Counted from the first letter of the stretch, positions 6,739-31,881 are shown. The stretch is 32,000 nucleotides of DNA from an uncultured Opitutales bacterium (GCA_934660865.1 CAKUIA010000009.1:61312-93311); one strand, 5' to 3'. Translations and numbers: made by a program. The notes: generated by a model not told the origin, from the letters alone.

Positions 6739-6824
6739 TGTACAGAGCAATAAAATAAAAAAGAGCGGCAATATTTCGCAATATTAAAAACCGCCCTTTT
6801 TAAAAAATTATCGCCTAAAGATAA

Positions 6825-7814
6825 TTACAAGCCCAAAGACTGCTTGATGATTGCCTGTTCGTCGAGCAATTCCTTGTTCGAGGCGGCAATCTTTTCCTTT
6901 GCGTAGTCGTTAAGCTCTATGCCCTGAACAACAGTCCAGTTTACGCCGTCTTCGGTGCGAACGGGCAGCGAAGTGATTGCGCCTTTGGGTGTGTTGTAGC
7001 TGCCGTCGGAGCATACGCATACGCTGAAGTATTCGCCCTTGGGGGTGGGGGTGATAAGGTGCTTTACGGTTTCTATTGCCGCATTTGCCGCGCTTGCCGC
7101 GCTCGACAAACCGCGGGCCGCTATAACGGCTGCGCCCCTCTTTTGAACCGTGGGGATAAATGTGTCTTTAAACCAGGCTTCGTCGTTGATAACTTCGGTT
7201 GCCTTTTTGCCGCCTATAAGGGCATTGGTGTAGTCGGGGAACTGTGTGGACGAGTGGTTGCCCCAAATTACCATGTTCTTTACTTCGGTGGTGTCGACCC
7301 CCGCTTTTTGTGCGAGCTGCGCCTTTGCGCGGTTTTCGTCGAGCATTGTCATTGCAAACCACCTGTTTTCGGGAATCTTCGGCGAGCTGTGTTTGCCAAT
7401 CCATGCGTTTGTGTTGCAGGGGTTGCCGACAACCAAAATGCGGACGTCGGGGGCTGCGTTTTCTTCGATAGCTTTGCCCTGGCCCACAAAGATTTTGCCG
7501 TTAATGCCGAGCAAGTCGCTTCTTTCCATGCCGGCTTTGCGGGGAACGCTGCCTACCAACAAGGCCCAGTTTACGTCTTTAAAACCTTCGTTCGGGTCGC
7601 TCGTGCAGGTGATTTTCTTTAGAGTGGGGAACGCACAGTCGTCCAACTCCATCTTAACGCCTTCAAGGGCTTTCATTGCGGGGGCGATTTCGATAAGGCT
7701 CAACTCTACGGGTTGGTCTTTGCCGAAAACATCGCCGCAAGCGATTCTGAACAAGAGGGAGTAGGCTATCTGACCGGCCGCTCCCGTTACTGCTACTTTA
7801 ATAGGTTTTTTCAT
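6825..7814 (-). CDS. mdh: NAD-dependent malate dehydrogenase (LDH-like long form)
   Basis: 329 aa. Diagnostic text: [19 protein letters not shown] (Rossmann fold), [23 protein letters not shown] and [12 protein letters not shown]. Confidence 0.9.
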
Positions 7815-8260
7815 AATAGTTATGTAGTATATAAAATCGATTAAAAGCTTTTTGCTATATTTTTATCCGTACATTTCTACCACCATTGTCGAAGAATGCA
7901 AGCTATAATACGCAATTTTTTTGCGGGTTAAATTTTTTGTAAATACGCCTCTAAAATTGCCGATTTACGGTTTTGTTTGCCCGCACTTGCGTTAAAGCCT
8001 AAAACAAAACATCTTCATATTTAAAATTTATCGAAATTATCATTTATTTTGATTGACTTTATTGTTAGGAATTTTTGAATTATGTTAAGTTTGCTGGCTT
8101 TTGTGCGTGGTTTTTGCAAAAAACGCGCCGAATTTCGGCAAAATTCTCTTATTTATTTCCCCAAAAATAAGATAAGAAAACAAGGAAGAATAATTAGTCG
8201 GAGCGGCATTTTCTCGCGGTTTCGGCTTAGGAATAACACAACTATATAAATACCAAAAAA

Positions 8261-11059
<2,799 letters not shown>

Positions 11060-11091
11060 TTGTCGGAAGTATAACATCTAAAAAACAAAAA

Positions 11092-11124
11092 GCCTCCGAA
11101 GTTTTTTTTCGGAGGTTTTTTTTG
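11092..11124. terminator. Bidirectional rho-independent terminator between ppdK and the MFS gene
   Basis: The stem CCTCCGAA (11093-11100) pairs with TTCGGAGG (11108-11115). A T-run follows on the plus strand (11116-11123) and an A-rich run precedes it, which reads as a T-run on the minus strand. It lies between two convergent genes. Confidence 0.7.
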
Positions 11125-11160
11125 CGTTTTTATCGGGCTTGGAATTTTTTAATTTTCGCC

Positions 11161-12378
11161 TTATTGCGGTTTGTTAAGCGATTTTTCCTTCATTGCCTTT
11201 ATTGTTCTAACTTTCGGCAAAAAGTAGGCTACAATGCCCAGTAGCGGCAAAAATGCGCATATGGAATATACAAATTCTATGCCGTATACGTCGGCAATTT
11301 TGCCGAGTGTTGCCGAGGCAATGCCCGCCATGCCGAACGAAAAGCCGAAAAATATTCCCGAAATAAGCCCGACTTTGTGCGGCATTAGCTCTTGTGCGTA
11401 AACCAATATTGCCGAAAATGCCGACGACATTATAAAGCCTATTATTGCGCTTAAAACTATGGTGCACTCGAAATTTGCATAGGGCATTAAAAGCGCAAAA
11501 GGCGCCGATCCCAAAATGGACCACCATATTACCAAGCGGCGCCCGTATTTGTCGCCCAAAGGCCCGCCGATAAGTGTGCCCAAAGCCGCCGAAAACAAAA
11601 ACACAAAAAGAAGGGCTTGCGCCGTTTGCACGCTGGCCGAAAACTTGTGCATTAAGTAAAAAGTGTAGTAGCTTGAAATGCTTGAGGTGTAGAAATTTTT
11701 TGAAAACACCAAAAACATTAAAAGCGAGATTATGAAAATTACCGTGCGTTTTGGCAGTGTTGCCTGCGGTGTTTGCCGCGCGTTTGTTGCGGCGTTTTGC
11801 ATGTTTTGCCTTATGCGGCGGTAATACCACCTGCAGGCGGGCAGCATTGCAAACAAAGCTACTATGCCCAACAGCGCAAACTTTATCATTCCCGACTGCG
11901 TTCTTAAAAACATTGCAGCCAAAAGCGGGCCAAGCGCATAGCCGGTAGAGCCGCCCACTTGGAATATGGATTGGGCCAAGCCCCTTTTGCCGCCCGAGGC
12001 AAACGAGGTTATTTTAGAGGCTTCGGGGTGTATTACCGACGAGCCTATGCCCGAAAAGAAAACCGACGCCATTAAACAGTATATATTGGGCGAAAGCGAT
12101 ATGCCCGCAATGCCGAGCATTGTGCTGCACATGCCCAAAGGCAAAAACAGCGCGCTCGGTTTTTTGTCCATAATGTAGCCGAAAATAGGCTGCATTATAG
12201 ACGACGAAATTTGGTATGTAAAAATAACCATGCCAACCTGTGCATAGCTTAGCGCCATTTCGCTTTTTATTACGGGGTACATTGCCGAAATTACCGACTG
12301 TATGGAGTCGTTAAACCCGTGCGCCATCGAAAGCGATACGAGAATTGAAAACATAAATGCGCTATTTTTCTTTTGCAT
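11161..12378 (-). CDS. MFS transporter (Fsr/fosmidomycin-resistance-like subfamily)
   Basis: 405 aa and hydrophobic throughout, with about 12 predicted TM segments. The N-terminal text FSILVSLSMAHGFNDSIQSVISAMYPVIK...IMQPIFGYIMDK resembles Fsr-type MFS proteins. The substrate is unknown. Confidence 0.8.
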   Translation of the reverse strand: MQKKNSAFMFSILVSLSMAHGFNDSIQSVISAMYPVIKSEMALSYAQVGMVIFTYQISSSIMQPIFGYIMDKKPSALFLPLGMCSTMLGIAGISLSPNIYCLMASVFFSGIGSSVIHPEASKITSFASGGKRGLAQSIFQVGGSTGYALGPLLAAMFLRTQSGMIKFALLGIVALFAMLPACRWYYRRIRQNMQNAATNARQTPQATLPKRTVIFIISLLMFLVFSKNFYTSSISSYYTFYLMHKFSASVQTAQALLFVFLFSAALGTLIGGPLGDKYGRRLVIWWSILGSAPFALLMPYANFECTIVLSAIIGFIMSSAFSAILVYAQELMPHKVGLISGIFFGFSFGMAGIASATLGKIADVYGIEFVYSICAFLPLLGIVAYFLPKVRTIKAMKEKSLNKPQ

Positions 12379-12544
12379 ATTCTATACGCGGTTTAACCGT
12401 ATTTTTTTATAAATCAAGCATTTTTATTTTTATGCAACATTCGGCTTATATAATGCGCAAAAGATATGTTTTTTTGTGAATATAAAAATCTTAAAATTTT
12501 CTTGAATCGATATACTGCAACTGTTAGACGTTTTACTTAAACTT

Positions 12545-17622: not shown

Positions 17623-17699
17623 GGGGTGGTAGTTCAGTTGGTTAGAACGCCTGCCTGTCACGCAGGAGGTCGCGAGTTCGAGTCTCGTCCATCCCGCCA
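17623..17699 (+). tRNA. tRNA-Asp (anticodon GTC), CCA encoded
   Basis: Hand-folded cloverleaf of 77 nt. The acceptor GGGGTGG pairs with CCATCCC. The D arm is GTTC-AGTTGGTTA-GAAC. The anticodon arm is CCTGC-CTGTCAC-GCAGG, with GTC at the centre. The T arm is GCGAG-TTCGAGT-CTCGT. The discriminator is G and the terminal CCA ends at 17699. Confidence 0.95.
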
Positions 17700-17705
17700 C
17701 TTTAA

Positions 17706-17739
17706 AAGCCGCAAGTTCAAACACTTGCGGCTTTTTTTG
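17706..17739 (+). terminator. Rho-independent terminator after tRNA-Asp
   Basis: The stem AAGCCGCAAG (17706-17715) pairs with CTTGCGGCTT (17724-17733), whose last bases run into a T-run extending to 17738. Confidence 0.75.
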
Positions 17740-17841
17740 TTTCTACATTTCGCGCCAAACCCAGTATCCACGCGGTTTGCGGGGCTGTGATGCCGCGCAA
17801 AGCCAGTATTTAAGCCACTTGCGGCGGAACGCCCGCCCGCC

Positions 17842-18369: not shown

Positions 18370-18588
18370 TTAGTTCCTTTCGTAAGCGATTTGCTTTGCC
18401 GCCATCAGGCGCGAAACGTGCCGAAACGGCAGCTGAGCGACTCCTTCCATTGCGAAACAAAGTTCGCGGTTTCTGCGGCGGTATGACATATACCTGCCGT
18501 CGCGTTTGTATTTTGTGTGGGGGGTATTTTCTTTTTCCATATTTTTTAACATTGCGATAAAATGTGTATCGGTCTCAAAATTTATCAT
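18370..18588 (-). CDS. Small basic hypothetical protein, third gene of the ATPase operon
   Basis: The track ORF is 18370..18633. The internal ATG at 18588 (MINFETDTHFIAMLKNMEK...KYKRDGRYMSYRRRNRE...) overlaps the ATPase stop as ATGA (18588-18585), so I prefer the 72-aa form. Confidence 0.5.
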   Translation of the reverse strand: MINFETDTHFIAMLKNMEKENTPHTKYKRDGRYMSYRRRNRELCFAMEGVAQLPFRHVSRLMAAKQIAYERN

Positions 18589-20009
18589 CTGCGCGGAGTC
18601 CGAGCCAAGGCGTCCCTCAACCCTGCCAAACATTCTCGTTCTACATCGGGTTCTGTGCGCGGATTTCTATGTGGAACGTCCACAAACAGCCGTTCGAGCT
18701 TTACGGCGCAAGGCGTGCAAAAACCGTTCGCCAGCTTGACGAATGCGTATCCCTGCGGCAGATTTTCGGGCGAAGTAAATTCCTCGCGCGGTTCTGTATC
18801 GTCAGCATTGAAGCCGATGTTTGGGCGCGGAGGCGGAGCATATGCCGCGAACTCTACAAGTTTGGCGGCTTCGGGCTCGGACGTTCTAAACACGAAAAGG
18901 TTGTTGATGTTTGCGAGCAGATGGGCGCGTTCCCTTTCGCCGATTGCCAAGTCGAGAGCAACAATTCCCTGTGTTGCGGCAATGGCAAAACCGCCTTTGC
19001 TGCGCATTGTTTGGAGGTTGTAGGAATCGCTTGAAATGTCGCGACCGCCAGTTGCAACAAGCGGGAATTCGTCCATAACAATTCCCGCAATGCGGTTGTC
19101 GGGAGAGTCGCCGCGAAGCTGTATAGTCCTATAAAATTGGGCTTTCGCGAGTTTCGCCACGATTGCCGCCGCAAACTGGTTTGTTGTCGCGGGAAATGTC
19201 AGAACGACAATCTTCCCGAACTTTGCGGTGTCTCCGATATCCAAAAGCTTTTTGCCGCTTAAAAAGTTTCGGGTTGTCCGATTTTCGAGAAGCGCGAGTG
19301 TGTTTGTCATAGTGCTTATCTCGTTGCTTTTCGTGCGCGAATCGAGCTTTTGCCACTCCGACAGGTCGGATTTTAGCCGCTTTGCAATGCGCTTTATCTG
19401 CGCCCAAGCCGCGTTTTTTCTCGATTTGTCAACGGCTTCGCGCCGGCAGATTTCGGGCAAAGCGGAAGAGATGAAATCCCGCCATTCGTCGATTTTGTCC
19501 GAATCCAAAAAATCCCGAAACGAATCGGTGAATTTGTCGAAATCCATCGAATCGTGGCGGAAGAGACAGAAGTTAAAAATTGTATTCAAACGCTTGCGGA
19601 ACGCCATTGTCCAATACACGTTTTCGCCGCTGTTGTCGCCGAATGCGGACATCAGGAAATCTACAAGTTCCGAAACTTTCGCGGACGAGTCCGCTTCGGC
19701 AAAAGGATTGATGTAGTAGTGTCCGTCGCCCGAGAAGTCCACAACATCGCGCATTCTGCCGCATTCGTGCGCCCACTTTTTGATTTTGCAAAGCGTACCG
19801 TCGTTTTTGAAATCGAAGAGCAACAAGCCTATTTTCCGCCTCTTGTCGTCTGCGCGAAAGGCAATCAGCCCGCGCAATAGGGCGTTTAGCGATGTTGTTT
19901 TGCCGCTGCCCGTGCTGCCGATAAAAAGCGTGTGCTTGCAAAGGGTGTCGGCGGTCAGGACGATTTCCCTACCGCCGCCGTTTAGCTTTGTTATAATTTC
20001 GTCTTTCAT
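18585..20009 (-). CDS. Soluble VirD4/TraG/TraD-like P-loop ATPase (FtsK-HerA superfamily) with no N-terminal membrane anchor
   Basis: The track ORF is 18585..20081. The ATG at 20009 overlaps the upstream stop as ATGA (20009-20006), giving 474 aa. Walker A is FIGSTGSGKTT (19893-19919). Walker B is GIVMDEFPL, with the DE pair at 19068-19073. These are followed by MRSKGG, AIAATQGIVALD and LFVFRTSEPEAAKLVEF. A helical insert of about 150 aa separates the two Walker motifs, as in type IV coupling proteins. Confidence 0.8.
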   Translation of the reverse strand: MKDEIITKLNGGGREIVLTADTLCKHTLFIGSTGSGKTTSLNALLRGLIAFRADDKRRKIGLLLFDFKNDGTLCKIKKWAHECGRMRDVVDFSGDGHYYINPFAEADSSAKVSELVDFLMSAFGDNSGENVYWTMAFRKRLNTIFNFCLFRHDSMDFDKFTDSFRDFLDSDKIDEWRDFISSALPEICRREAVDKSRKNAAWAQIKRIAKRLKSDLSEWQKLDSRTKSNEISTMTNTLALLENRTTRNFLSGKKLLDIGDTAKFGKIVVLTFPATTNQFAAAIVAKLAKAQFYRTIQLRGDSPDNRIAGIVMDEFPLVATGGRDISSDSYNLQTMRSKGGFAIAATQGIVALDLAIGERERAHLLANINNLFVFRTSEPEAAKLVEFAAYAPPPRPNIGFNADDTEPREEFTSPENLPQGYAFVKLANGFCTPCAVKLERLFVDVPHRNPRTEPDVERECLAGLRDALARTPRR

Positions 20010-20485
20010 GCGAAAATGCCAATGGGCGTCAAAATTTCCTCGGCAGGCGTTGGACGGTCGTTTCCGAATCGTGCCCGCCAAAGCCTTGCCAACTCTTCCC
20101 TTGCTTCGAGGTCGTAGGCGTTCTCGAATATTTCGCGGAACTTCTCCCTCGTTATCCTCCCGAAAACGCCTTTCTCTTCAAGAACGGGAAGAAGGCTGTT
20201 TTCCACCATTACAACTTCCGCCCAGACATCGTCGGGAAGCGTCAGTCTTCGCCAAAGCGGTTTTTCGAAATTCCGCTCCGCAAACAAAAGTGCCGCGATA
20301 TCCGTTTGGGGTATTTGGTATCCGTCCGAAACAATCCGCCCGAACGCCTCGTAGACCAAAGGATTTAGGCGCAAAAACATTACGGGCAAAAGCGAATGTT
20401 TCTTGATAAACGCGAGTATTTCCCCGTTCAGCGCGCCTTCGTTTTTGTCAATCATTTCAAGTAGTTTTAGATATAATTTATTCAT
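20006..20485 (-). CDS. Hypothetical protein, first gene of the ATPase operon
   Basis: 159 aa, MNKLYLKLLEMIDKNEGALNGEILAFIKKHSLLPVMFLRLNP.... It looks helical and I recognise no motif. Its stop overlaps the ATPase start. Confidence 0.6.
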   Translation of the reverse strand: MNKLYLKLLEMIDKNEGALNGEILAFIKKHSLLPVMFLRLNPLVYEAFGRIVSDGYQIPQTDIAALLFAERNFEKPLWRRLTLPDDVWAEVVMVENSLLPVLEEKGVFGRITREKFREIFENAYDLEAREELARLWRARFGNDRPTPAEEILTPIGIFA

Positions 20486-20516: not shown

Positions 20517-20639
20517 ATTTGCGTCTAAAAATTTACCTGAACTAAGTTTGACATGCTGCGAAATATTCTTCCATAGTCGATAAAATTGCATTTAACTGCA
20601 AAATTACAGAGTGTAGACGATTATTTTACAAAAAAACAC

Positions 20640-20675
20640 TTGCAAAATAATATTTTATAGCCGATTATTTTGCAA
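20640..20675. promoter_or_regulatory. Perfect 12-bp inverted repeat (operator candidate) upstream of the AAA+ ATPase gene
   Basis: TTGCAAAATAAT (20640-20651) and ATTATTTTGCAA (20664-20675) are exact reverse complements with a 12-bp spacer, 20 bp upstream of the ATG at 20696. A third, direct half-site CGATTATTTTACAAA lies at 20618-20632. Confidence 0.45.
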
Positions 20676-20695
20676 ATATTGAATATTTTTAGGTT

Positions 20696-21967
20696 ATGGA
20701 CGAATATTTTGCAGGCATAGAGAAATTTAACTTTTGGGGAGATAATCCGCCCGATTTGGGATTTTCGCGCAAATTTTATCTCGAAAAAATAGCGGCGTAT
20801 TCGGAGAGCAAATTGATAAAGGTTCTCGTCGGGCAAAGGAGGGTCGGCAAAAGCTACATTCTGCGGCAAATACTTTTTTCACTCGTAAAAAGCGGACTTC
20901 CAAAAGAGAACACCCTTTACATAAACCGCGAATACGCCGAGTTCGGCTTCATAGAAAGCGCGGAGGATTTGGAGCGCGTCTTTGCCGAATATAAAAAGCG
21001 GATGTCTCCGAAAGGCAAAATCGCCATGTTCATCGACGAAATACAGAACATAAACGGCTGGGAAAAATTCGTGAATTCGCACTCGCAGGATTTTACCGAA
21101 GAATGCGATATCTACATAAGCGGCTCGAATTCTAAAATGCTTTCGGGGGAGCTTGCGACGTTGCTTTCGGGGCGATATATCCAGTTCGAGATTCTGCCGT
21201 ATTCGTTTGTAGAGTTTGCCGAGGTAAACGGACTTTCCGCCGATAGGCAGGCGTATTTGAAATACCTTGCAACGGGCGGGCTTCCCGCTCTTACAACGCT
21301 TCCGACCGAGGAAAGCCGACGCAACTATGTAGACGCGTTAAAAGACACCGTGTTGTTGCGCGACATCGTGCAACGATACAATATAAAAGACCCGAATCTG
21401 CTGGAAAATCTTTTCGCGTTTGCCGTAAACAATTCGTCGTCGCTGATTTCAATCGGCGGCATCGTCAAATACTACAAAGGCAAAAATAAGGCGACGACCT
21501 ACGAAACCGTTTCGTCATACTTGGAATATATGCAAAATTCGTATATTTTGCACAAAGTTGATAGATTTGATATGCGCGGCAAGGAAGTATTGTCGGGCAA
21601 AAGCAAATACTACCTCAACGATTCCGCCTTTCACAACTACCTTTTTGCAGGCGTTGGCTACGGGATAGGATACCAGCTCGAAAACCTGGTTTATCTCGAA
21701 TTGCGCAGGCTCGGCTTCGATGTTTTTGTGGGGACTACGAGGACAAAGGAAGTAGATTTCGTGGCGAAGAAAAGCGACCGTGTTGTTTACATTCAAAGCT
21801 GTTATTTGCTATCCGACGAAGAAACCGCCAAACGCGAATACTCGGCGTTGGAGTCGATTCACGACAACTACGAAAAATACGTTGTTTCGCTCGACGATGT
21901 AAAAATGCCGAACCGCGGCGGGATAATCCACCTGCGCGCGTGGGAGCTGCAAGACGCGCTCAAATAG
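20696..21967 (+). CDS. AAA+ ATPase of the AAA_14 + DUF4143 architecture
   Basis: 423 aa. Walker A is VGQRRVGKSY (20831-20854 covers GQRRVGKS) and Walker B is IAMFIDEIQNINGWEKFV. The C-terminal half (VDFVAKKSDRVVYIQSCY...) resembles the widespread, uncharacterised DUF4143-type ATPases. Confidence 0.75.
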   Translation: MDEYFAGIEKFNFWGDNPPDLGFSRKFYLEKIAAYSESKLIKVLVGQRRVGKSYILRQILFSLVKSGLPKENTLYINREYAEFGFIESAEDLERVFAEYKKRMSPKGKIAMFIDEIQNINGWEKFVNSHSQDFTEECDIYISGSNSKMLSGELATLLSGRYIQFEILPYSFVEFAEVNGLSADRQAYLKYLATGGLPALTTLPTEESRRNYVDALKDTVLLRDIVQRYNIKDPNLLENLFAFAVNNSSSLISIGGIVKYYKGKNKATTYETVSSYLEYMQNSYILHKVDRFDMRGKEVLSGKSKYYLNDSAFHNYLFAGVGYGIGYQLENLVYLELRRLGFDVFVGTTRTKEVDFVAKKSDRVVYIQSCYLLSDEETAKREYSALESIHDNYEKYVVSLDDVKMPNRGGIIHLRAWELQDALK

Positions 21968-21969
21968 CG

Positions 21970-22908
21970 TTATTTTGCCTTGGCGGTTTCTTTTTCCAAA
22001 GCTTTCTTATTTTCGCGCTCTTCGTCGGCTGTCTGCCTTTTTAGGATTGTGCGCAAAGTTTCTTCGCTGTCCACATCGTCGGAGAATTCTTTGCAAACGT
22101 CGTCGAATTCTGCGGAACTATACTCTTTAACGAAGCTGTCGCGGAACTTTTTCAACGCCTGCTCAGGCGTATGATTTTTTCGGTCATATAATGCGAAAAA
22201 ATGGTGTTCGTATTTGCTGCGTTCGGTAATGTCGTCCCTGCCGTCGTTCGAGTCTGAAATGCAATTAGGGTGGCACGCAAAGACAACGGCGATATATTTG
22301 CCGACGTTGCCGTTGTATTTTTGAAATTCTACATTGCGGACAACCAGCCCGTAGCGTCGGCGCGGAAGCTTTGTTCGCTTGTCGGTTGGAACAATTTTGC
22401 GCCGAAGCGGAATTTTAAAATCCCTTTTCAGAATGCGCGTAATCGAAGAGGGCGGATATATCGCCTTTCTGTCTTCGGATTGCGTTTTATCGGCGGGCTG
22501 TTTTGATTTCACGCTTTGAGGTTTGCGCCTTTGCTTTTTTGAAGTCCATTTGTATCTGCACCCGCAAATGTCGTCGCGGCATTTATTGAGCTCGCCGCAG
22601 ATTTTCGAGCGCGTTTGAATTTCACCCGAGGTGAGGCAGTCCAAAATTAGTTCGTTGCGGGCGTTCAAGTTCGACGCCGGCGGCCGTCCGCGCCCGCAAT
22701 ACGGTATGTCAGCGTAAAGCCTATGCACTTCTTCGGCTGAATCGAAATCCCCTTCTTCGCGGATTATTTTTAGCATTCTGCGAATATGCGCAGGCTTGAT
22801 TGGCGAATCTTCCAACTCGAGTTTTCGATACGCATACCCGACGGAGCAATCCCCCAGCGATTTCAGTGCGTCGTACGTTTTCTCGAAAATTGTTGCATTT
22901 GAAGCCAT
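21970..22908 (-). CDS. Hypothetical protein with a Cys cluster and a basic linker, divergent partner of the helicase
   Basis: 312 aa. It contains the Cys cluster CGELNKCRDDICGCRY, the basic stretch TSKKQRRKPQSVKSKQ and a KE-rich C-terminal tail. I recognise no enzymatic motif. Confidence 0.55.
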   Translation of the reverse strand: MASNATIFEKTYDALKSLGDCSVGYAYRKLELEDSPIKPAHIRRMLKIIREEGDFDSAEEVHRLYADIPYCGRGRPPASNLNARNELILDCLTSGEIQTRSKICGELNKCRDDICGCRYKWTSKKQRRKPQSVKSKQPADKTQSEDRKAIYPPSSITRILKRDFKIPLRRKIVPTDKRTKLPRRRYGLVVRNVEFQKYNGNVGKYIAVVFACHPNCISDSNDGRDDITERSKYEHHFFALYDRKNHTPEQALKKFRDSFVKEYSSAEFDDVCKEFSDDVDSEETLRTILKRQTADEERENKKALEKETAKAK

Positions 22909-22928
22909 TTGATATTTTATATAAACAT

Positions 22929-25343
22929 ATGTTAGACGAACTGAAATTCAAAGCTTTTTTACAAGAAACCCTCAATCGGGCACCCGATGACGACCAAATG
23001 GCGGTTCTTCGCGAAATCGCGCGGGTGGCCGAGTCAAATGAGGCTTTGAATTATTTTAGGGTTGGCGCAAGCGCGGGCTCGGGAAAAACCACACTGATTT
23101 TATTTGCCTATGCCCTGCTCAGAAAATTTTGCGGAGTCCACAGTAATCAAATCGTAATTCTTACGCTTAATACACGCATCTCCAACAAGATTAACCTCGA
23201 AATCAAGGCGATTGAAAACAAACTGGAGGAACCCGAGCTTTCGGACGTTTGCGCATACACATTCCACGCATTTGCCATGAGATTTTTGAGAAAAGTCTCT
23301 ATGAAAAAAGGCGACATATTAACAGAAAATGCCAGTGTCTATCATAAAGATGTTTCATATAAGTTCCAGAATTTTATAGGCGAGGAATATCTTGACGATG
23401 AAAAGTTCCGAAAAGACATCGACAATCTCGATTTTCTTGCACATTCGGAGGCGGACTGTTCGACCGAAAAGTCGAAAAAAGTAATGTTGTCGGAGAGGCT
23501 GTCTGACTTCGGAATTTCGAGCAACGGAGCTGTGCTTCGCGGCGACATTGGCAGGCGTTGCTCGAAGGAATTTCAACAAAACCGCACGCTGCGCGGGGAC
23601 TCGTTATTGGACTCGGCGGGGAATCCGCTACCGCAAGCTTTTCAGAAGAGAATCTGCGACATCGCAAACCGCCTTTTCCTTTGGGACATAAACTACGACT
23701 TAAAAATTTGCGACGCCCGTGCGATAATTTCGATTATCGACAACTCTGACTTTGGACAAAACCGGTCTGCCGAATCGGCAAGGCGAAAATCGTATATTGA
23801 AATCGTTGACGGAGACCAAGACGACAATATGTTTTACGGATCGCTTTTGGTAAACGGCAAGTTTTTGAAATCTTTGCCGACGCAACCTACGCCCGAAGAT
23901 TGGCTAAAGTTTTCGCCCGAAGAAACGCCGTCTGACATCGCCGAATTGAGGGAATTTTGCAACGAATGCAATGCCAATACGGAAGGGCAGAAAATTAAAG
24001 ACCTTTCCGGCCTCACATACATCGGCAAGGACGAACTATCGAAGTTCCTAATGGAAATAATAGAACGGCTGAGAGCCGAAGGGAAGATAAGCGTTGTGCC
24101 CAAATCCGGCAGTATGGACGTAAAGACATATGTGGATAAAATATTAAAAAAGTATTCGTCGTCGAATGGTAATGTAGAATCGGGAAGTAATTTAATCGGA
24201 GGAAGCGTAAAAACGCGCGCACAAATCGAATCTTTTTTCAATATCCTATCTACTACGTTGTGCGAACTCATTGACGTAAACTTCGAAACATTTTCAGCTG
24301 TTATGGAAAAGGCGGTCGGAAAAAGTCCGTTGTCGAGTAGGTGCGAAAAAATGCTTAGCAATTTGCGTTTTGTGTTTGTTGACGAAGCTCAGGATATGAA
24401 CCGCGTTTTTGTAGACGTTTTAAAAGAAATTAGAAAGTGTGCGCCCGCCGCCAATTTCATAACGGTAGGCGACCCGGCGCAGGCAATTAACAGGTTTATC
24501 GGCGCACATCCTACGCTGTTTTTGAATTTGGCAAATCCGTCGAAGTCTGTGGACATTCCCAAAGACGGCGCGGATACAGGCGACAACACCAACCATACTC
24601 CCCAAGGGCAGGAAAACCCGTTCGGTAATTTCAAAGTAAAACGCTTTGAGTTGCCAATCACATATCGAATGGATTTAAAGCTTGTTAATGCCGCCAATAC
24701 TTTCAAAAATTTCAAGCGTGTAAAAAGCGACAATTCAAATTCACCCGACATGCGGCTATTCGGACTTACCATGCGTCCGTGTGCCGGAAAAACAAGCAAT
24801 GGGGATATTGAGGTTCACTGCATCGCGCCGAAGGTTATGTCGGAATTTTCAAAAAAGTTCTACGATACGCTTTGCGGGATAATCGAAAAGGAATTGGCGA
24901 AAAATGAAGACGCCGATTTTGCACTGCTAGCCAGAACAAACTTGGTGGATTCGATAGGCGATTTGGAGCTGATTAGACAAAAAACGCTGTCGCTATTGAA
25001 ATCGAAAGGCGTAAAACTCTCCCCCGCGAAATTGAGAGCTTCAACCGTCCATAGATACAAGGGCGAAGAAGCCGACTGTGTCGTAATTCTCGATGCGACG
25101 GACAAAAACTATCCGAAACACTTCGATGAAACGGCGGAGAAAATCAAGCAAATCCTCTTCAATGATCCGCCAAGTGCATATTATGACGATTCGGTAAACT
25201 TGTTCTATGTCGCCATAACGCGAGCCCGACATTCGCTGCACTTCATTTGCAACGACAACCCAAGCGCATTTTTGACGAGGGCGGGAATTTTGACTGCACG
25301 GACACGGCTCAATGAGAGGGAAGCCAGCCAAGACGTCCGCTGA
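22929..25343 (+). CDS. UvrD/Rep/PcrA-like superfamily 1 helicase with an enlarged region between motifs I and II
   Basis: The track ORF starts at a TTG at 22800. The first ATG at 22929 gives 804 aa. Motif I is GASAGSGKTT (23064-23093), followed by TFHAFAMRFL. Motif II is FVFVDEAQDMN (DEAQD at 24381-24395) and motif III is ITVGDPAQAINRFIGA. Then come ELPITYRM and ALLARTN. Motif VI is TVHRYKGEEADCVVIL (from 25044), followed by LFYVAITRARHSLHF. Confidence 0.85.
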   Translation: MLDELKFKAFLQETLNRAPDDDQMAVLREIARVAESNEALNYFRVGASAGSGKTTLILFAYALLRKFCGVHSNQIVILTLNTRISNKINLEIKAIENKLEEPELSDVCAYTFHAFAMRFLRKVSMKKGDILTENASVYHKDVSYKFQNFIGEEYLDDEKFRKDIDNLDFLAHSEADCSTEKSKKVMLSERLSDFGISSNGAVLRGDIGRRCSKEFQQNRTLRGDSLLDSAGNPLPQAFQKRICDIANRLFLWDINYDLKICDARAIISIIDNSDFGQNRSAESARRKSYIEIVDGDQDDNMFYGSLLVNGKFLKSLPTQPTPEDWLKFSPEETPSDIAELREFCNECNANTEGQKIKDLSGLTYIGKDELSKFLMEIIERLRAEGKISVVPKSGSMDVKTYVDKILKKYSSSNGNVESGSNLIGGSVKTRAQIESFFNILSTTLCELIDVNFETFSAVMEKAVGKSPLSSRCEKMLSNLRFVFVDEAQDMNRVFVDVLKEIRKCAPAANFITVGDPAQAINRFIGAHPTLFLNLANPSKSVDIPKDGADTGDNTNHTPQGQENPFGNFKVKRFELPITYRMDLKLVNAANTFKNFKRVKSDNSNSPDMRLFGLTMRPCAGKTSNGDIEVHCIAPKVMSEFSKKFYDTLCGIIEKELAKNEDADFALLARTNLVDSIGDLELIRQKTLSLLKSKGVKLSPAKLRASTVHRYKGEEADCVVILDATDKNYPKHFDETAEKIKQILFNDPPSAYYDDSVNLFYVAITRARHSLHFICNDNPSAFLTRAGILTARTRLNEREASQDVR

Positions 25344-25349
25344 CAAATT

Positions 25350-25388
25350 TTGCCGCAAAGCGCGAAAATACGAATCCGCCTGCGGCAA
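25350..25388. other. Inverted repeat between the convergent helicase and HTH genes (possible weak terminator)
   Basis: TTGCCGCA (25350-25357) and TGCGGCAA (25381-25388) form an 8-bp stem with a 23-nt loop. There is no T-run on either side. Confidence 0.3.
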
Positions 25389-25391
25389 AGT

Positions 25392-25751
25392 CTACTCCTC
25401 TTGTTTTGCCGAAAGGTATTTTTCGGCGAAAAGCGTTTTTTTACGTCTGCTCGAATCGGATTTTATCGGAGTGATGCTTTTGTATTTTTCGTCGGATGCA
25501 ACCGCTGCAAAATCGAACTTAGCCTGCATTAGCAACAGATTGTTTTCGGGCGGAATTTCCAACGCTTTCCCAATGCGGCAGGCGGTATCGGGAGTAAACG
25601 CGCGCTTTCCCTTCACCAAGCGCGAAACGACATCGGGCGTCAATTTTGACTCTTTGGCGAGCGCATACATTGTTATTTTTCTGTCGGCAAGCAAGCGCGC
25701 CAAGAATTTGTGGGGGGATTCAGACTGGTTGCCATCGTGAGTTGCATTCAT
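25392..25751 (-). CDS. XRE-family HTH protein, HigA/VapI-antidote-like
   Basis: 119 aa. The text PHKFLARLLADRKITMYALAKESKLTPDVVSRLVKGKRAFTPDTACRIGKALEIPPENNLLLMQAKFDF follows the HigA-type pattern (…GKR.IT.DTA.RL.K.. then …Q..YDL). Confidence 0.7.
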   Translation of the reverse strand: MNATHDGNQSESPHKFLARLLADRKITMYALAKESKLTPDVVSRLVKGKRAFTPDTACRIGKALEIPPENNLLLMQAKFDFAAVASDEKYKSITPIKSDSSRRKKTLFAEKYLSAKQEE

Positions 25752-25952: not shown

Positions 25953-25988
25953 AAAAAAAAGAGATACCTCCGAAACCGAAAGTATCTC
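25953..25988 (-). terminator. Rho-independent terminator after the relaxase gene
   Basis: The stem GAGATAC (25961-25967) pairs with GTATCTC (25982-25988). On the minus strand a T8 run follows (A-run on the plus strand at 25953-25960). It lies 27 nt downstream of the stop at 26015. Confidence 0.7.
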
Positions 25989-26014
25989 TGAATATGGCAG
26001 CTCAATCAAAATTA

Positions 26015-27409
26015 TTAACGATCAAAATCATAACTACGTTGTGTATCTTGCGTAGGCTGGTTTTGTTGCGTCCTACTTTGCGGTGGCGGATACCCTTGTT
26101 GTTGTCCGGTCTGTTGTTTTTGAGTTTTCTGCTGTTCCTTTTCGTGGAAGAATTCTTCCAAATCTTTTATGATATACAAAAATAGTACCATCATTTTACT
26201 ACCATTTGGCGAAAGTTTTTTTTCCCACTCCTGCTGAAATTTTTCTAACGTCGAAACATACTGTATATTTCTGAGAGCATCTGACAACATGCCCCTAACT
26301 TTTGTGCCAGCTTCCGAAATTCGTCTTGTTGTTGTTTTAAGGTTTCTTTCAATTGATAGATTTCCTGGGTGTAGCTTTCCATGATATTCTCTTCCATCTG
26401 ATCCATCGATCTGTTTAGCGCCTCCACTTCCCTCGCCAAATCTTTCGCTATTTCCTGAACCCCCTCGCGAAGAATTCCGTGAATCTGCGACTTGGGTTTT
26501 TTCAACTCGTTCATGAGGATTTCCGCAAACGGCGGAATCATATGATACAGAATTGGCGTTGCTGTTTTTGACATGTTGTCCAATGTTGTTGCTTTGTTCT
26601 GGGTGTTCATAGTTTTTTAAGTATTTATATTTATTTTTAAGACGCGCGTAGCGCGTTTGGGAAAGTTTTTTGTATTGTTCGTCAACATCTACTCCTTCCG
26701 AATCAATCGCACGCGTGTTGTCGTTATTACAAAGATTGCCTGTAAGTTTTATCTTCGTATCTCCCGATTTTACTGTTATCGAAGTGTCGGTCTTTCGGTT
26801 TATGATAAAATTGCTTTGCTTTAAAAACCTTTCGAAATCCTCGCGGTTGTTTATCGCTTTCCCATACTCCGACATCTCATTTTTCAGTCTGAGGAAAAGC
26901 GACTGCTGAGACGAATTCCAATATTTGTTTGCATCGGCAAGTCCCCGCCTGAGCTCGGGCGAATTCGGGTCGGTGAGTTTCGGATATTTTTTATGGATAT
27001 AACGCCCGAACGCCTCGAAGTATTTTCTGTCGTATTTATCGAAATAGACCGGGAAATATCTCCCGCCGACACTCTCCGCCGCAACGAAGTTTAATTCGAA
27101 ATCGTGCTTGGGATTGTCGTGCAAGATGAACAAGTGTTGAAAGTTCGACTTGTCCATATTTGGATAAACCTTCTCCAGAATGTCGTCCATTAACGAAGCA
27201 AGAAACTTTGTCCCTCCAAGCTCCGCAAGCGACTTTTTGTCGCGATAGCAGAACGTCACATAGCCCTTCTTTTTGCTGGATTTTTGTTCGATTTCGCGCA
27301 TAAAACTGTCATAGCAACCGCCGACAATTGTTGAGGGACGCTTGCGTCCTTTTGAATCTACATCGCCGAGCAAGTACTTTAACGTAGACGGTAAATATTC
27401 TATAATCAT
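26015..27409 (-). CDS. Putative mobilization relaxase (MobA/VirD2-like N-terminal domain); the C-terminal half has an uncertain gene model
   Basis: 464 aa. Its ATG overlaps the mobC stop as ATGA (27409-27406), the usual mobC-relaxase arrangement. The N-terminus MIIEYLPSTLKYLL contains a candidate catalytic Tyr. HLFILHDNPKHDFELNFV resembles the relaxase His-rich motif, but only two His align. The Q/P-rich tail is of low complexity. Confidence 0.6.
   Translation of the reverse strand: MIIEYLPSTLKYLLGDVDSKGRKRPSTIVGGCYDSFMREIEQKSSKKKGYVTFCYRDKKSLAELGGTKFLASLMDDILEKVYPNMDKSNFQHLFILHDNPKHDFELNFVAAESVGGRYFPVYFDKYDRKYFEAFGRYIHKKYPKLTDPNSPELRRGLADANKYWNSSQQSLFLRLKNEMSEYGKAINNREDFERFLKQSNFIINRKTDTSITVKSGDTKIKLTGNLCNNDNTRAIDSEGVDVDEQYKKLSQTRYARLKNKYKYLKNYEHPEQSNNIGQHVKNSNANSVSYDSAVCGNPHERVEKTQVADSRNSSRGGSGNSERFGEGSGGAKQIDGSDGREYHGKLHPGNLSIERNLKTTTRRISEAGTKVRGMLSDALRNIQYVSTLEKFQQEWEKKLSPNGSKMMVLFLYIIKDLEEFFHEKEQQKTQKQQTGQQQGYPPPQSRTQQNQPTQDTQRSYDFDR
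26245..26610 (-). other. 121-aa ORF nested in the +1 frame of the relaxase ORF (possible separate gene)
   Basis: The ATG at 26610 has an A-rich leader like other genes here. The product MNTQNKATTLDNMSKTATPILYHMIPPFAEILMNELKK...EIYQLKETLKQQQDEFRKLAQKL has amphipathic, coiled-coil character. The relaxase frame over the same bases reads as G/S/R-rich low-complexity text. Confidence 0.3.
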
Positions 27410-27858
27410 CTCGAATTCCTTTGTCTTATCTGCGATAGGATTTCTTTGTGTAATTCGGAATTACTTTTTACATATTCCACTATCGCTAAGCATTCGTCGC
27501 CGTTCTCAATTCCGCGGGCGAAATCTTCTATTGCCATAGCCTTACCCAGAATTTTCACAAGCGCAGCCTGTGTGTTTAATATATCGATGGGGTTCTCGTA
27601 TTTCAGCGCAAAATTCAGATCTCGCGCAATCTGGTTGAGATTGTTTGAAAGCCTGCTGATTGCCACAATACGCGCATGTTCAATTGTCTCTTTTTTGACG
27701 AAAACAAGATCTCGTATCTTTCCGAGAAAATCCGCAACGGCGTTACGTATAAGCTCGCCGACACTGATTTCCCGCGCCTTCGCCTCCGCGTTCCATAATT
27801 TCTTTTCCTTTTCGGGAACGCGAAATTCCACTCGTTTATCTTTTGTTTCTTTGTCCAT
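27406..27858 (-). CDS. mobC: Relaxosome accessory protein MobC
   Basis: The track ORF begins at a TTG at 27918; the ATG at 27858 gives MDKETKDKRVEFRVPEKEKKLWNAEAKAREISVGELIRNAV (RHH-like). This is followed by the MobC signature ISRLSNNLNQIARDLN. Confidence 0.8.
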   Translation of the reverse strand: MDKETKDKRVEFRVPEKEKKLWNAEAKAREISVGELIRNAVADFLGKIRDLVFVKKETIEHARIVAISRLSNNLNQIARDLNFALKYENPIDILNTQAALVKILGKAMAIEDFARGIENGDECLAIVEYVKSNSELHKEILSQIRQRNSR

Positions 27859-27905
27859 AATTACAATTTTCCTTAAGAAACGCGTAGCGTTTTCGGGGGT
27901 GTCCA

Positions 27906-27956
27906 GAGGGGGTGTCAACCACCCTCGGCAAGCTGGGGTAATGTCCGTGTACGGAC
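27906..27956. promoter_or_regulatory. Candidate oriT region (inverted repeats upstream of mobC)
   Basis: An imperfect inverted repeat pairs GAGGGGGTG (27906-27914) with CACCCTC (27920-27926). A perfect palindrome GTCCGT-GT-ACGGAC lies at 27943-27956. Both sit in the short gap upstream of mobC, where oriT usually lies in MobC/relaxase modules. Confidence 0.35.
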
Positions 27957-28880: not shown

Positions 28881-29189
28881 CTACCTTTCCATTTGGGGTT
28901 GAACGAAGCGGTGGTCGTATTTAGCTTTGAGAATTTTCTCTACGCGCAATACCTCCGATTTCACATAGGAATGCGGTTTCCCAATGCACCGCATTTCGGG
29001 ATACTTTTTTAGGTATTTCCCGAATGTTCTTCGCGACATTCGCAATATTGCGAGAGTCTGGTGAATGTCTATCAGTTCGACTCCGCAATATTCCGACAAT
29101 TTTTTGTCGTTTACTTCGGAGGTCGTCCTGATTGTTTGCGCTATTTTAAGTAGCGACTCTATTTCTGCGTCATTTAGTTCTATTATCAT
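28881..29189 (-). CDS. HTH DNA-binding protein, excisionase (Xis/AlpA, HTH_17)-like
   Basis: 102 aa. The text LIDIHQTLAILRMSRRTFGKYLKKYPEM fits the short MerR-like excisionase HTH. It lies directly downstream of the integrase gene. Confidence 0.55.
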   Translation of the reverse strand: MIIELNDAEIESLLKIAQTIRTTSEVNDKKLSEYCGVELIDIHQTLAILRMSRRTFGKYLKKYPEMRCIGKPHSYVKSEVLRVEKILKAKYDHRFVQPQMER

Positions 29190-29237: not shown

Positions 29238-30395
29238 TTACGCTTTCGAATTTTCCGTTGATTCCTCCGCCAAGCTTTGCGGCGTGATGGAGAAGAATTT
29301 TTCGGCATCTTCAATATTGGCGCTGCCCATATAGTGCTGAGCCAGCGTGGCGTAGCCACGAATGTGCCCCATGTCGGCAACGGTCTTTTGCGGCCCGAAT
29401 TTGAAATACGCGTATGTGGCGAACGTATGCCGCAAAACGTCCTGCGAGAGGGCAACCGGCAGCCCGCGCCGCATTTTCCGAAACGTCCAATACGAGCCTT
29501 TTATTATGTTTCCTTCCCGTTCGTCCTCGGGAACGGTTTCCAGAAACGCCCACAAGTTTTCGGAAACATTTTGAGTGGCGCGCTGCTTGCGCACTTTCGA
29601 TGTCTGCCCCTGAATCGTGATAACTTTCGATTTGAAGTTGATGTCCGACCACTGCATAAAACGCTTCTCGAAATTGCCAATCAGTTCCCCCGGGCGGACT
29701 CCGTAAAACGTCATCAGCGCAAAGCCTGCCAGATACTCTTTCGGAACTGATTTCAGCAGAGTTTTGACCTCTTCGACTGACAGAATTTTCGCAGGCATCG
29801 TGTCGCTATACTTGCGCATAAGCGTAACCTCGGCGGCAACGTCTTCCGTAATGTATCCCTCCCGTTTGGCGAACTTGAACAACGCCTTGATTACTTTGAG
29901 GTTGTTCTTCTGCGAACCGCTCGAACGTATGTAGGATTCGATTTCGCTTTTTAAGATTGTCGCGAAATTTCGAGTTCCATTGAAGTAAGTGATAAAGCGG
30001 ACGCGCAGGTATTGGTCGTATTCCTTGAGCGTTTTGTCGCGGAGATTTATGTGCTGGCTGTGTGCCATAAAGTTTCGCACGCAGTCCCGCACCAATATGA
30101 CCTTGTTGTATGAATTCAACTCGACGCGCCTGATGGCGTCCTTGATTACAATCTCGGTGGACAGCCCGCGCCTGTGGCATTCCGTGTTGAGCTTTAAGAC
30201 GGCCAAACGAACGCCGCTTGGAATTGTCATATCCTCTGGGAGCGAATACTCGCTCCTAAGCGAAATCATAAAAGATTCCGCTTCGCTTTTGGTCGTAAAC
30301 GACCTTGATTTTAATTTGCCCGCATCGGGATAAAACACCAAATAAGGCGATTTGCGCCCGTCGCGATACTCCAGTCTAATTGAATTTGTTTTCAT
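29238..30395 (-). CDS. int: Tyrosine recombinase / phage-type integrase
   Basis: The track ORF opens with a GTG at 30437; the ATG at 30395 gives MKTNSIRLEYRDG. The catalytic-domain text is FYGVRPGELI (box I Arg), LRHTFATYAY (His-x-x-Arg) and MGHIRGYATLAQHYMG (the final His/Tyr region). Confidence 0.9.
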   Translation of the reverse strand: MKTNSIRLEYRDGRKSPYLVFYPDAGKLKSRSFTTKSEAESFMISLRSEYSLPEDMTIPSGVRLAVLKLNTECHRRGLSTEIVIKDAIRRVELNSYNKVILVRDCVRNFMAHSQHINLRDKTLKEYDQYLRVRFITYFNGTRNFATILKSEIESYIRSSGSQKNNLKVIKALFKFAKREGYITEDVAAEVTLMRKYSDTMPAKILSVEEVKTLLKSVPKEYLAGFALMTFYGVRPGELIGNFEKRFMQWSDINFKSKVITIQGQTSKVRKQRATQNVSENLWAFLETVPEDEREGNIIKGSYWTFRKMRRGLPVALSQDVLRHTFATYAYFKFGPQKTVADMGHIRGYATLAQHYMGSANIEDAEKFFSITPQSLAEESTENSKA

Positions 30396-30490
30396 ACAAG
30401 GGAATGTGTTCCGCGGATAAAATTTCCGCCAAAACACCGAATCCCTTTATACGTGCGTAGCACGTCCCGCGCCCACTCGGGCGCACCCTC

Positions 30491-30525
30491 TAAAAAACAA
30501 AAAGCGGCAAAGTCCCCTTTGCCGC
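30491..30525 (-). terminator. Rho-independent terminator of the 31881-30649 two-gene module
   Basis: The stem GCGGCAAA (30504-30511) pairs with TTTGCCGC (30518-30525). On the minus strand it is followed by TTTTTGTTTTTT (complement of 30492-30503). Confidence 0.7.
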
Positions 30526-30648
30526 CGATGTTTGTTGTAAGATGCCGTTAAACGCAAAATCCGATTCTATTGTTGCTATTTGTTGAACGGTCTCTTTTTG
30601 AATTCGGTCTCGTACTTTAAACGTTCAAGAATATCGCGCATGCTCGAT

Positions 30649-31149: not shown

Positions 31150-31881
31150 CTATAAAATGCGAAATTTCTGTAAGTCGTCCTTAGTTTGGAGAATTACATC
31201 ATCTTTTAGCGGACGAACTTGGTCTTTCGTGTTTTGCAACACACTTTTAGATGCATTGTAAATGCGTTGGTAAAATTCAAGGCGGGTGGGAAAATATGCG
31301 TTCCATGCGTCGCGAATACACGGAGGTTCAATGGAATAGTTAGACGTAGCAACGATTAGAAATACCCCCGTTCCCTTTGTGTAGAGAGCCTTGTTTATAA
31401 ATTCGTGAAAGAAAAAATGATTTCCCTTCCGCCCAAGCAATTTTGAATAATCGGAGGTGATGGAAACAATGACGGGTAATTTTCTCTTTGCAGTTTTGTT
31501 GTATTCAAAGAACGAACCGCCAAAGTTTTCCAAGAGCTTGTATCTTTCGCGGTAAATTCTGTAAAGCACGTCTGCTACATAGAGAATTTCTGGAGTTCTG
31601 GTTTTTACCTTTCCTCCCCAAAAATGGCAATTCCCTTTAAAACTCGAAAAGATTTTTCTCTCATTTGAATTTAAAATTATCTCCAATTCCTCGTCGGAAT
31701 AACGTTCCGAAAGCGATTTGATTAAGGTTGAAACGTATTTTGTCAAAAAGCGGTTGTCTCCTCCAATTAAAATATTGTCGAGTGAGAACAAGTCTTTGTA
31801 AACGGTTTCACCTACGTCGTTTTTCCCAATCGGAATAGTTATAGCTTTTTCAGGTTCAAAATTTTGATTTTTGTCTTTCAT
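31150..31881 (-). CDS. Stand-alone FtsK/SpoIIIE-like domain protein with degenerate Walker A, Walker B and arginine-finger motifs
   Basis: 243 aa, collinear with the FtsK motor core. [41 protein letters not shown] aligns with [54 protein letters not shown]..YNKT aligns with [31 protein letters not shown] aligns with [46 protein letters not shown] aligns with [30 protein letters not shown]. Confidence 0.65.
   Translation of the reverse strand: [243 protein letters not shown]

Follow-up and report, generated by a model that had tools for sequence, protein, structure and literature searches.

A head-to-head pair of an orphan protein and a helicase-IV-like SF1A helicase in integrative elements at a tRNA-Asp locus of gut Opitutales

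We analysed a 32,000-nucleotide stretch of DNA from an uncultured Opitutales bacterium (GCA_934660865.1, CAKUIA010000009.1:61312-93311), referred to throughout as the window, and two of its genes that are arranged head to head. One encodes a 312-amino-acid (aa) protein, called the partner here, and the other an 804-aa helicase of superfamily 1 (SF1). The two genes are a genuine, tightly linked and co-inherited pair. They are part of a common core that has been retained by two lineages of integrative elements, in which the mobilisation genes and cargo have been replaced. We tentatively favour the reading that the pair is a core module of the integrative elements found at tRNA-Asp in gut Opitutales, and that its role lies in the DNA life cycle of the element itself and not in immunity. 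The pair is a well-delimited candidate for experiment and not a demonstrated new system; nothing about it is categorically new, and the partner is an orphan family.

The head-to-head arrangement, the coordinates of both open reading frames (ORFs) and the exact 20-bp gap between the two ATG codons were as an earlier reading of the window, made from its sequence only (the sequence-only reading), had stated:

21970..22908, minus strand: partner gene, 312 aa, orphan family, probably DNA-binding (ORF call)
22909..22928, no strand: 20-bp divergent control region between the start codons, TTGATATTTTATATAAACAT, 85% A+T (sequence)
22929..25343, plus strand: 804-aa helicase of superfamily 1A (SF1A), helicase-IV-like in its core and lacking a 2B domain (ORF from the first in-frame ATG)

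Homologues of the helicase all open with ML(D/N)EL or MIDEE, in agreement with a start at ATG 22929, and the helicase ORF of the distant lineage has no room for an upstream extension. A TTG at 22800, which would give a protein of 847 aa, was considered as the helicase start and was unsupported, as the conserved N-termini begin at the later ATG. The partner ORF is not extendable past 22908, and the N-terminus of the protein is conserved as well. Purifying selection acts on the two genes: the ratio of nonsynonymous to synonymous substitution rates (dN/dS) is 0.15-0.23 in comparisons with three relatives. The 20-bp intergenic sequence was identical across 5 related elements, and in the second lineage the gap between the two genes is 37 bp, counted from the conserved ATG. 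Sigma-70 consensus scans around 22900 detected nothing above the shuffled background. The earlier suggestion that each promoter lies inside the opposite gene is a reasonable one given the short gap, and leaderless transcripts from overlapping -10-like boxes (TATAAA and TAAAAT), which were spotted by eye, would also be possible. At its 3' side the helicase gene is separated by convergent terminator-like hairpins (25375-25431) from a gene for a helix-turn-helix (HTH) protein of the HTH_3 family.

The idea of a two-gene system had been made to depend beforehand on finding the two genes together elsewhere. Contigs were gathered by genome, metagenome and exact-protein look-ups, which resulted in 22 distinct partner-bearing contigs from two lineages, and the helicase was adjacent and divergent, head to head with the partner, in 22/22. 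A word-indexed search identified 8 clusters for the partner, all at least 85% identical, and 15 clusters for the helicase, two of them 38% identical and one 25% identical. Next to each of the 38%-identical helicases lies a divergent gene for a protein of 284-290 aa with 28-32% identity to the partner (E 7e-35 and 2e-31). When 1.84 billion representative proteins were searched exhaustively with a HMMER profile, the partner family came out as 3 clusters (50% identity), and the family is therefore confined to two element lineages. The hosts were Opitutia, Opitutales or Verrucomicrobia metagenome-assembled genomes, several of which came from human gut metagenomes. No relatives of the partner were detected in plasmid (tblastn), phage or viral-contig collections. 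The helicase gave nothing by tblastn against the plasmid collection, a single 69-residue motif match in the phage search and distant UvrD cores only among viral contigs. The pair has diverged at the rate of the element backbone, at 86-87% identity as compared to 74-92% for the integrase, mob genes and coupling protein.

Two decayed copies of the pair were found, at loci L013 and L010, and the remainder of each element looks intact. At L013 (9996-10001) a clean 817-bp deletion, equivalent to window 22647-23463, has removed both 5' ends together with the intergenic region and fuses helicase codon ~179 to partner codon ~90. At L010 (3555-3597) the helicase carries a frameshift near residues 452-465.

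Only five genes are common to the two lineages, namely the HTH_3 gene (47-52% identity), the partner, the helicase (38%), the integrase (33%) and a small Xis-like gene (37% over 56 aa). The window lineage has in addition a coupling protein, MobC/NikA and a putative relaxase. The gene order in the second lineage is a partial tRNA-Asp copy, the HTH gene, the partner, the divergent helicase, the integrase, a 108-aa gene, a gene-less stretch of ~4 kb and changing cargo, with the helicase, integrase and Xis-like gene consecutive on one strand. The cargo consists of ParA, AAA_14/DUF4143, SocA_Panacea or AAA_21 fragments, and AAA_14/DUF4143 was present at L100 and L105. The HTH-side end of the second-lineage elements is a ~50-nt copy of the 3' half of tRNA-Asp that is identical to window 17650-17699. 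When compared with window 17650-17740, the tRNA-Asp copies were located at L001 (266-354), L003 (1-50) and L015 (~12430-12480), and at L015 the copy is followed by the same chromosomal, terminator-like flank as in the window. The shared tRNA-Asp copy and flank indicate that both lineages target the same locus in related hosts.

The helicase has the full SF1 UvrD/PcrA motif set with motifs I and II about 435-439 residues apart, as the sequence-only reading had described. The motifs lie at residues 50 (GSGKT), 111 (TFH), 485 (DEAQD), 514 (GDPAQAI), 578 (TYR), 706 (TVHRYKG) and 763 (ITRA), and all of the motif residues are invariant in the family alignment. Taking both Pfam domains above their gathering scores plus motifs I-VI as the mark of the SF1 UvrD-like superfamily, the protein belongs to it, with 92.3 bits for PF00580 (cut-off 23, 5.5e-26) and 47.4 bits for PF13361 (cut-off 25.6, 2.3e-12). 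The spacing between motifs Ib and II is 374 aa, as compared to 131 aa in E. coli UvrD and 163 aa in E. coli helicase IV, and the spacing between motifs IV and V is 128 aa, as compared to ~275 aa and 92 aa, respectively. The short IV-V spacing indicates that the helicase has no 2B domain.

The best NCBIfam family was helicase IV (NF008276), at 82.8 bits and below its equivalog cut-off of 543. The HelD equivalog (NF041464) scored 37.4 bits against a cut-off of 419 and matched the motif II region only, and the UvrD, PcrA and Rep equivalogs (TIGR01075, TIGR01073 and TIGR01074) scored 26.1, 43.6 and 44.7 bits against cut-offs of 1144, 911 and 951. Alignment of the family profile to E. coli HelD using hhalign gave a probability of 99.4% over residues 436-757 only (motifs II-VI), at 28% identity. 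There are 49 residues ahead of Walker A as compared to 218 in E. coli HelD (GSGKT at 50 vs 219), and the N-terminal domain of helicase IV/HelD type is therefore missing. PHROGs assigned the protein to phrog_1967, a generic phage DNA helicase family (1.4e-37), and the closest PDB sequence match was D. radiodurans UvrD (E 5.8e-7). The helicase is thus a new variant in the helicase-IV-like branch of SF1A that lacks both the N-terminal domain and 2B and carries a novel module at the 1B position.

E. coli DNA helicase IV (HelD, b0962) is the closest family by sequence. The two share motifs II-VI, including a ...Q.I.RF.GA motif III and a TYR motif IV, and both have a 1A/2A core without 2B. However, E. 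coli helicase IV has an N-terminal domain of ~200-215 aa that the window helicase lacks, its 1B-position segment cannot be aligned to the much longer one in the window, and the window helicase is mobile-element-encoded with an obligate divergent partner. HelD, the RNA polymerase recycling motor, has a UvrD-like 1A/2A core without 2B and a large unrelated insertion at the 1B position of UvrD, and its defining features are an N-terminal secondary-channel arm and a clamp arm (PMC8655204). The window helicase has the core layout of the Bacillus and Actinobacteria HelD proteins but lacks the N-terminal secondary-channel arm domain, and no similarity was detectable between its insert and solved HelD structures. 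UvrD, PcrA and Rep belong to the same superfamily with the same full motif set, but the window helicase has no 2B and its 1B region is about three times longer. A match of the insert to a known HelD/helicase IV housekeeping architecture had been named earlier as grounds for dropping the idea of a two-gene system. The likeness holds for the core, which is helicase-IV-like by both sequence and domain spacing, and not beyond it: the helicase is not an orthologue of helicase IV or HelD, and the insert matches neither protein.

The helicase contains a family-specific module:

23268..24380, plus strand: family-specific module, residues 114-484, in the position of domain 1B (motif spacing)

Its excess over UvrD or helicase IV is about 210-245 aa by motif spacing, which bears out the extra module of ~250 aa reported previously. 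The module had no Pfam match and, using the family profile, no PDB sequence match; neither a nuclease domain, as had been noted, nor any other family was detected in it. Full-length homology to the module is restricted to the second lineage (34% identity, E 3e-56). A PD-(D/E)xK/Vsr-like nuclease was suggested by eye, from the resemblance of NYDLK..DNSDF..SYIEIVDG in the insert to Y.YE..RPDF..YIE.WG in P0023, a more distant 972-aa helicase that was used in the multiple alignment with the insert. This candidate was rejected. BLASTP of the insert against the YRPDF..YIE segment of P0023 was not significant (E 1.4), and of the acidic residues in the insert E291 alone is invariant, with D274 and D294 lost in the second lineage, which counts against a nuclease. 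The AlphaFold2 (AF2) model of the isolated insert (8 sequences) had a predicted local confidence score (pLDDT) of 37, too poor to judge the fold, and its Foldseek output was therefore meaningless.

The partner had no match in Pfam, NCBIfam, PADLOC or PHROGs, and no Pfam model matched any member of its family. This agrees with the earlier statement that it resembles neither GajA nor HamA. Alignment of 9 family members from both lineages placed a conserved stretch at about residues 65-174, and three features were located in the partner gene:

22672..22704, minus strand: PYCGRGRPPAS, residues 69-79, with an RGRP (AT-hook/Hin-arm-like) core, invariant in 9/9 aligned members
22387..22671, minus strand: conserved helical region, residues 80-174, the densest block of invariant columns
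22552..22599, minus strand: Cys cluster CGELNKCRDDICGCRY, residues 104-119, present in the sequence and not conserved

The helical region contains the motifs RN.LI....T.G.I.TR...CG.LN....I.G..Y.W..KK and YPPSSITRIL..F.IPL.R..P and is interrupted by a lineage-specific basic linker. In the AF2 model of the partner (mean pLDDT 63) helices were placed at residues 78-92, 100-115 and 154-163. The C-terminal domain is alpha/beta, poorly conserved and better defined in the model, and Foldseek found no match to the model in PDB or BFVD at E < 0.05. Residues ~65-174 may form a minor-groove arm followed by helix-turn-helix/winged-helix-like helices, in which the RGRP motif would enter the DNA minor groove. 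The invariant G-R-G-R-P-P, the short helices and ...S(I/V)(T/S)RIL recall AT-hook proteins and the HTH domains of Hin/resolvase-type proteins and transposases that carry a GRPR minor-groove arm. This likeness is one of motif, with no significant Pfam HTH or PDB match and no recombinase or transposase catalytic domain in the partner; the sole PDB similarity, to a Z-alpha winged helix, was not significant (E ~1).

The Cys cluster had been presented as a meaningful feature of the partner, and conservation did not support this. C71 and C104 are the only invariant cysteines in the protein, and C104 is the sole invariant one in the cluster. C117 is already R or H among relatives with 85-95% identity, and C109 and C115 are replaced by F/I/R-type residues in the second lineage. 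The protein does not have four or more Cys/His ligands at the conserved spacing of a zinc finger, and as the Cys cluster is not conserved it is not a metal site. A zinc or Cys-cluster identity was ruled out by these variable cysteines. The highly basic linker described alongside the cluster is present; it is a 21-residue lineage-specific insertion (residues ~126-148) and is absent from the second lineage. An HUH motif ("EHHFF") was also considered and ruled out, as its first His is Tyr in the second lineage.

The integrative element that carries the pair in the window is ~12.8 kb and runs from tRNA-Asp (17623-17699) to ~30470-30565, as judged by homology with related elements. The window element is probably mobilisable, with an integrase, a TrwB/VirD4-like ATPase, a MobC/NikA-like protein and the tRNA-Asp, along with a putative relaxase that matches no family. 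The gene order is a 140-aa gene, the coupling ATPase, a 159-aa gene, the AAA_14/DUF4143 gene, the partner, the helicase on the opposite strand, the HTH_3 gene, a 464-aa ORF, the MobC/NikA-like gene, a 294-aa gene, a 102-aa gene and the tyrosine integrase. The main features are:

17623..17699, plus strand: tRNA-Asp(GTC), one element end (ARAGORN and Rfam)
18585..20081, minus strand: type IV coupling protein-like ATPase, TrwB/VirD4-like (TrwB_AAD_bind 7.4e-11, T4SS-DNA_transf)
20696..21967, plus strand: AAA_14 and DUF4143 ATPase, PADLOC candidate PDC-S01, variable cargo adjoining the pair (PDLC04787 4.7e-137)
25392..25751, minus strand: 119-aa HTH_3 (Xre/HigA-like) protein, linked to the pair in both lineages (HTH_26, HTH_3; phrog_1381, plasmid antitoxin with HTH)
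26015..27409, minus strand: 464-aa ORF, putative relaxase by position only, overlapping the stop of the MobC/NikA-like gene
27406..27918, minus strand: MobC/NikA-like accessory protein (NikA-like 1.3e-6, MobC 4.7e-6)
28881..29189, minus strand: 102-aa Xis-like gene, 37% identical (56 aa) to the 108-aa gene of the second lineage
29238..30437, minus strand: tyrosine integrase (weak XerD/XerC-type NCBIfam matches), 33% identical to the second-lineage integrase

The 464-aa putative relaxase had no Pfam, NCBIfam, PHROGs or PDB family match, and comparison of the two ends of the window element revealed no att direct repeat. The AAA_14/DUF4143 gene is present in the window and at L004, L005 and L009. 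Its sequence (window 20631-21883) is missing from L006, L007, L010, L011 and L013, where the last 27 codons remain.

Known defence systems were compared with the pair in PADLOC. The helicase matched models of GajB, RT-helicase, AbiO and Nhi over short motif stretches, with 76.5 bits as the highest score, and these matches are generic in that any UvrD-like protein would give them. Like Gabija, the pair is carried on mobile DNA and joins a UvrD-like helicase to a single partner gene, and GajB models were the top PADLOC matches, but the Gabija genes are in an operon and the window pair is divergent. Gabija was rejected, as the GajB match was partial (76.5 bits over three short segments, one of them residues 700-777), an OLD-type ATPase/TOPRIM domain is absent from the partner and no OLD/TOPRIM gene is adjacent. 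Hachiman was rejected as there was no HamA (DUF1837) or HamB match in PADLOC, and HamB is a superfamily 2 protein whereas the window helicase is SF1. Membership of Nhi or AbiO was rejected as well, with generic helicase-motif matches only and none for the partner.

In the life-cycle reading that we tentatively favour, the partner would be a sequence-specific DNA-binding protein with an RGRP minor-groove arm and helix-turn-helix-like helices. It would bind element DNA, probably including the 20-bp AT-rich divergent region, where one operator would set both genes, and it would recruit or load the 804-aa helicase-IV-like SF1A motor, whose ~245-aa module at the 1B position would provide docking or gate the DNA. 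The helicase may then open up the DNA of the excised or nicked element so that it can be replicated or transferred, analogous to RepD or NicK/HelP engaging PcrA. ICEBs1 and rolling-circle plasmids rely on a UvrD/PcrA-type helicase that is engaged by the element-encoded NicK/HelP or RepD (PMC3542172, PMC4797284). The extremely narrow phyletic spread of the pair is the pattern of a backbone gene and not of a horizontally shuffled defence cassette. The single genomic context, the core position next to the integrase and the lack of an effector domain or a match to a catalogued defence family likewise argue against a free-moving defence cassette. Several points weigh against the life-cycle reading. 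The DNA binding of the partner, its contact with the helicase and the role in replication or transfer are what we infer, the first of them from motifs. Homology of the partner to Rep, relaxase or helicase-loader families could not be detected, and no origin-like repeats or iteron array were found in the window element. The broken copies at L013 and L010 lie in otherwise intact elements, which shows that an integrated element can persist without an intact pair. Finally, the candidate defence gene PDC-S01 and an antitoxin-like HTH gene are among the neighbours of the pair.

The sequence-only reading had seen a defence layout in the pair, and no positive evidence for this was found, given the generic GajB matches, the lack of an effector or nuclease domain and the placement of the pair in the core and not in cargo. 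A new two-gene anti-phage or anti-plasmid exclusion system, in which the partner senses or marks foreign DNA, the helicase with its novel module disrupts replication of the invader and the HTH_3 gene acts as regulator of the system, is somewhat unlikely in our estimate. Defence loci on mobile elements recurrently join a helicase to an uncharacterised protein, and chromosomally integrated elements commonly carry defence systems (PMC10201445). The pair also adjoins the AAA_14/DUF4143 gene (PDC-S01, 4.7e-137), second-lineage elements carry defence-like or toxin-antitoxin-like cargo (AAA_14/DUF4143, SocA_Panacea and AAA_21 fragments), and loss of the pair from otherwise intact elements is as expected of an accessory gene. 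However, the partner had no PADLOC match, the GajB/Nhi/AbiO matches of the helicase reflect generic SF1 motifs, and no nuclease, TIR, SIR2, transmembrane or other effector domain was detectable. The distribution is very narrow, the pair was never found in another genomic context, and it sits in the conserved core beside the integrase, outside the variable cargo slot. We consider it unlikely that an orphan site-specific DNA-binding protein steers a helicase-IV-like motor through the 245-aa module against incoming DNA, as a nuclease-less form of exclusion, or that the pair is a replication initiator of UvrD type and not DnaB type.

A link that is regulatory only appears improbable to us. In that case the 312-aa protein would be a transcription factor, the switch of the element, encoded divergently from the operon under its control, and the helicase would act alone, with no physical partnership. 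The starts, 20-37 bp apart, force shared control DNA on the two genes, the conserved core of the partner is DNA-binding-like, and in the second lineage the partner points to the HTH_3 gene and the helicase leads into the integrase and Xis-like gene in an arrangement that resembles a lysogeny-type switch. Nevertheless, the protein is 312 aa long, has an additional C-terminal domain and has been inherited strictly together with the helicase even though all other neighbours have been rearranged, which suggests more than a generic regulator, and the window-lineage helicase is monocistronic and followed by convergent terminator-like hairpins, so that the target operon would be the helicase alone. 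Still more improbable by a wide measure is a HelD/helicase-IV-type housekeeping factor for RNA polymerase recycling or recombination that is on the element by chance. Helicase IV was the best NCBIfam match, hhalign gave 99.4% against E. coli HelD over motifs II-VI, and the helicase shares with HelD the absence of 2B and a large non-UvrD insert at the 1B position (PMC8655204). The scores are nonetheless far under the equivalog cut-offs (82.8 vs 543 and 37.4 vs 419), the defining N-terminal domain is absent, and the protein was found only in these mobile elements.

If the partner loads or steers the helicase, the pair would be a compact element-encoded way to aim an SF1A helicase at specific DNA. 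This would, if true, be the first function for a helicase-IV-like protein beyond E. coli recombination and HelD-type transcription recycling. The analysis also defines an integrative-element family at the tRNA-Asp locus of human-gut Opitutales, an order in which, to our knowledge, almost no mobile genetic elements have been characterised.

Further observations were made on the neighbouring genes in the window. Three units of ~36 nt at 20597-20715 contain the inverted repeat TGCAAAAT...ATTTTGCA; they immediately precede and overlap the beginning of the AAA_14/DUF4143 gene and are likely an operator for this cargo gene. The HTH_3 protein resembles a HigA-type antitoxin (phrog_1381), and no toxin ORF was evident alongside it. 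A hairpin with a 13-bp stem (25960-25989) lies 3' of the putative relaxase gene, and the C-terminal part of the 464-aa ORF (26187-26446) is the most divergent segment of the element. Just beyond the integrase end, in a region of 36% GC, there is a 243-aa FtsK/SpoIIIE-like ORF (31150-31881; phrog_1358 and phrog_3551, ~1e-7), and this region may be the edge of another mobile element.

The second-lineage elements contain additional sequence features. At L001 7912-8560, and also at L002, L100, L103, L104 and L105, there are about ten 18-nt iterons, G(C/T)CCGTTCAGGTGTCTAT, with spacings that are alternately ~50 and ~95 bp. Between 4 and 6 of the copies are exact, depending on the locus, and several are followed by the palindrome GTGTCTATATATAGACA. 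With up to 3 mismatches allowed, no copy of this iteron was found in the window. The array might serve as an origin, as a centromere or as a set of operators. It belongs to the gene-less ~4-kb stretch of the second lineage. This stretch beside the integrase and 108-aa genes (L105 1650-5675; L001 ~6400-11200) has no ORF longer than ~100 aa and no Rfam family match, is 95-99% conserved between copies and has a GC skew of up to +0.32. At L102 (7500-16388) phage-like replication genes (AAA_24 and a DEAD/ResIII/SNF2 helicase) lie directly against a second-lineage element, together with another gene of 389 aa, an arrangement that suggests tandem occupation of the same tRNA-Asp site.

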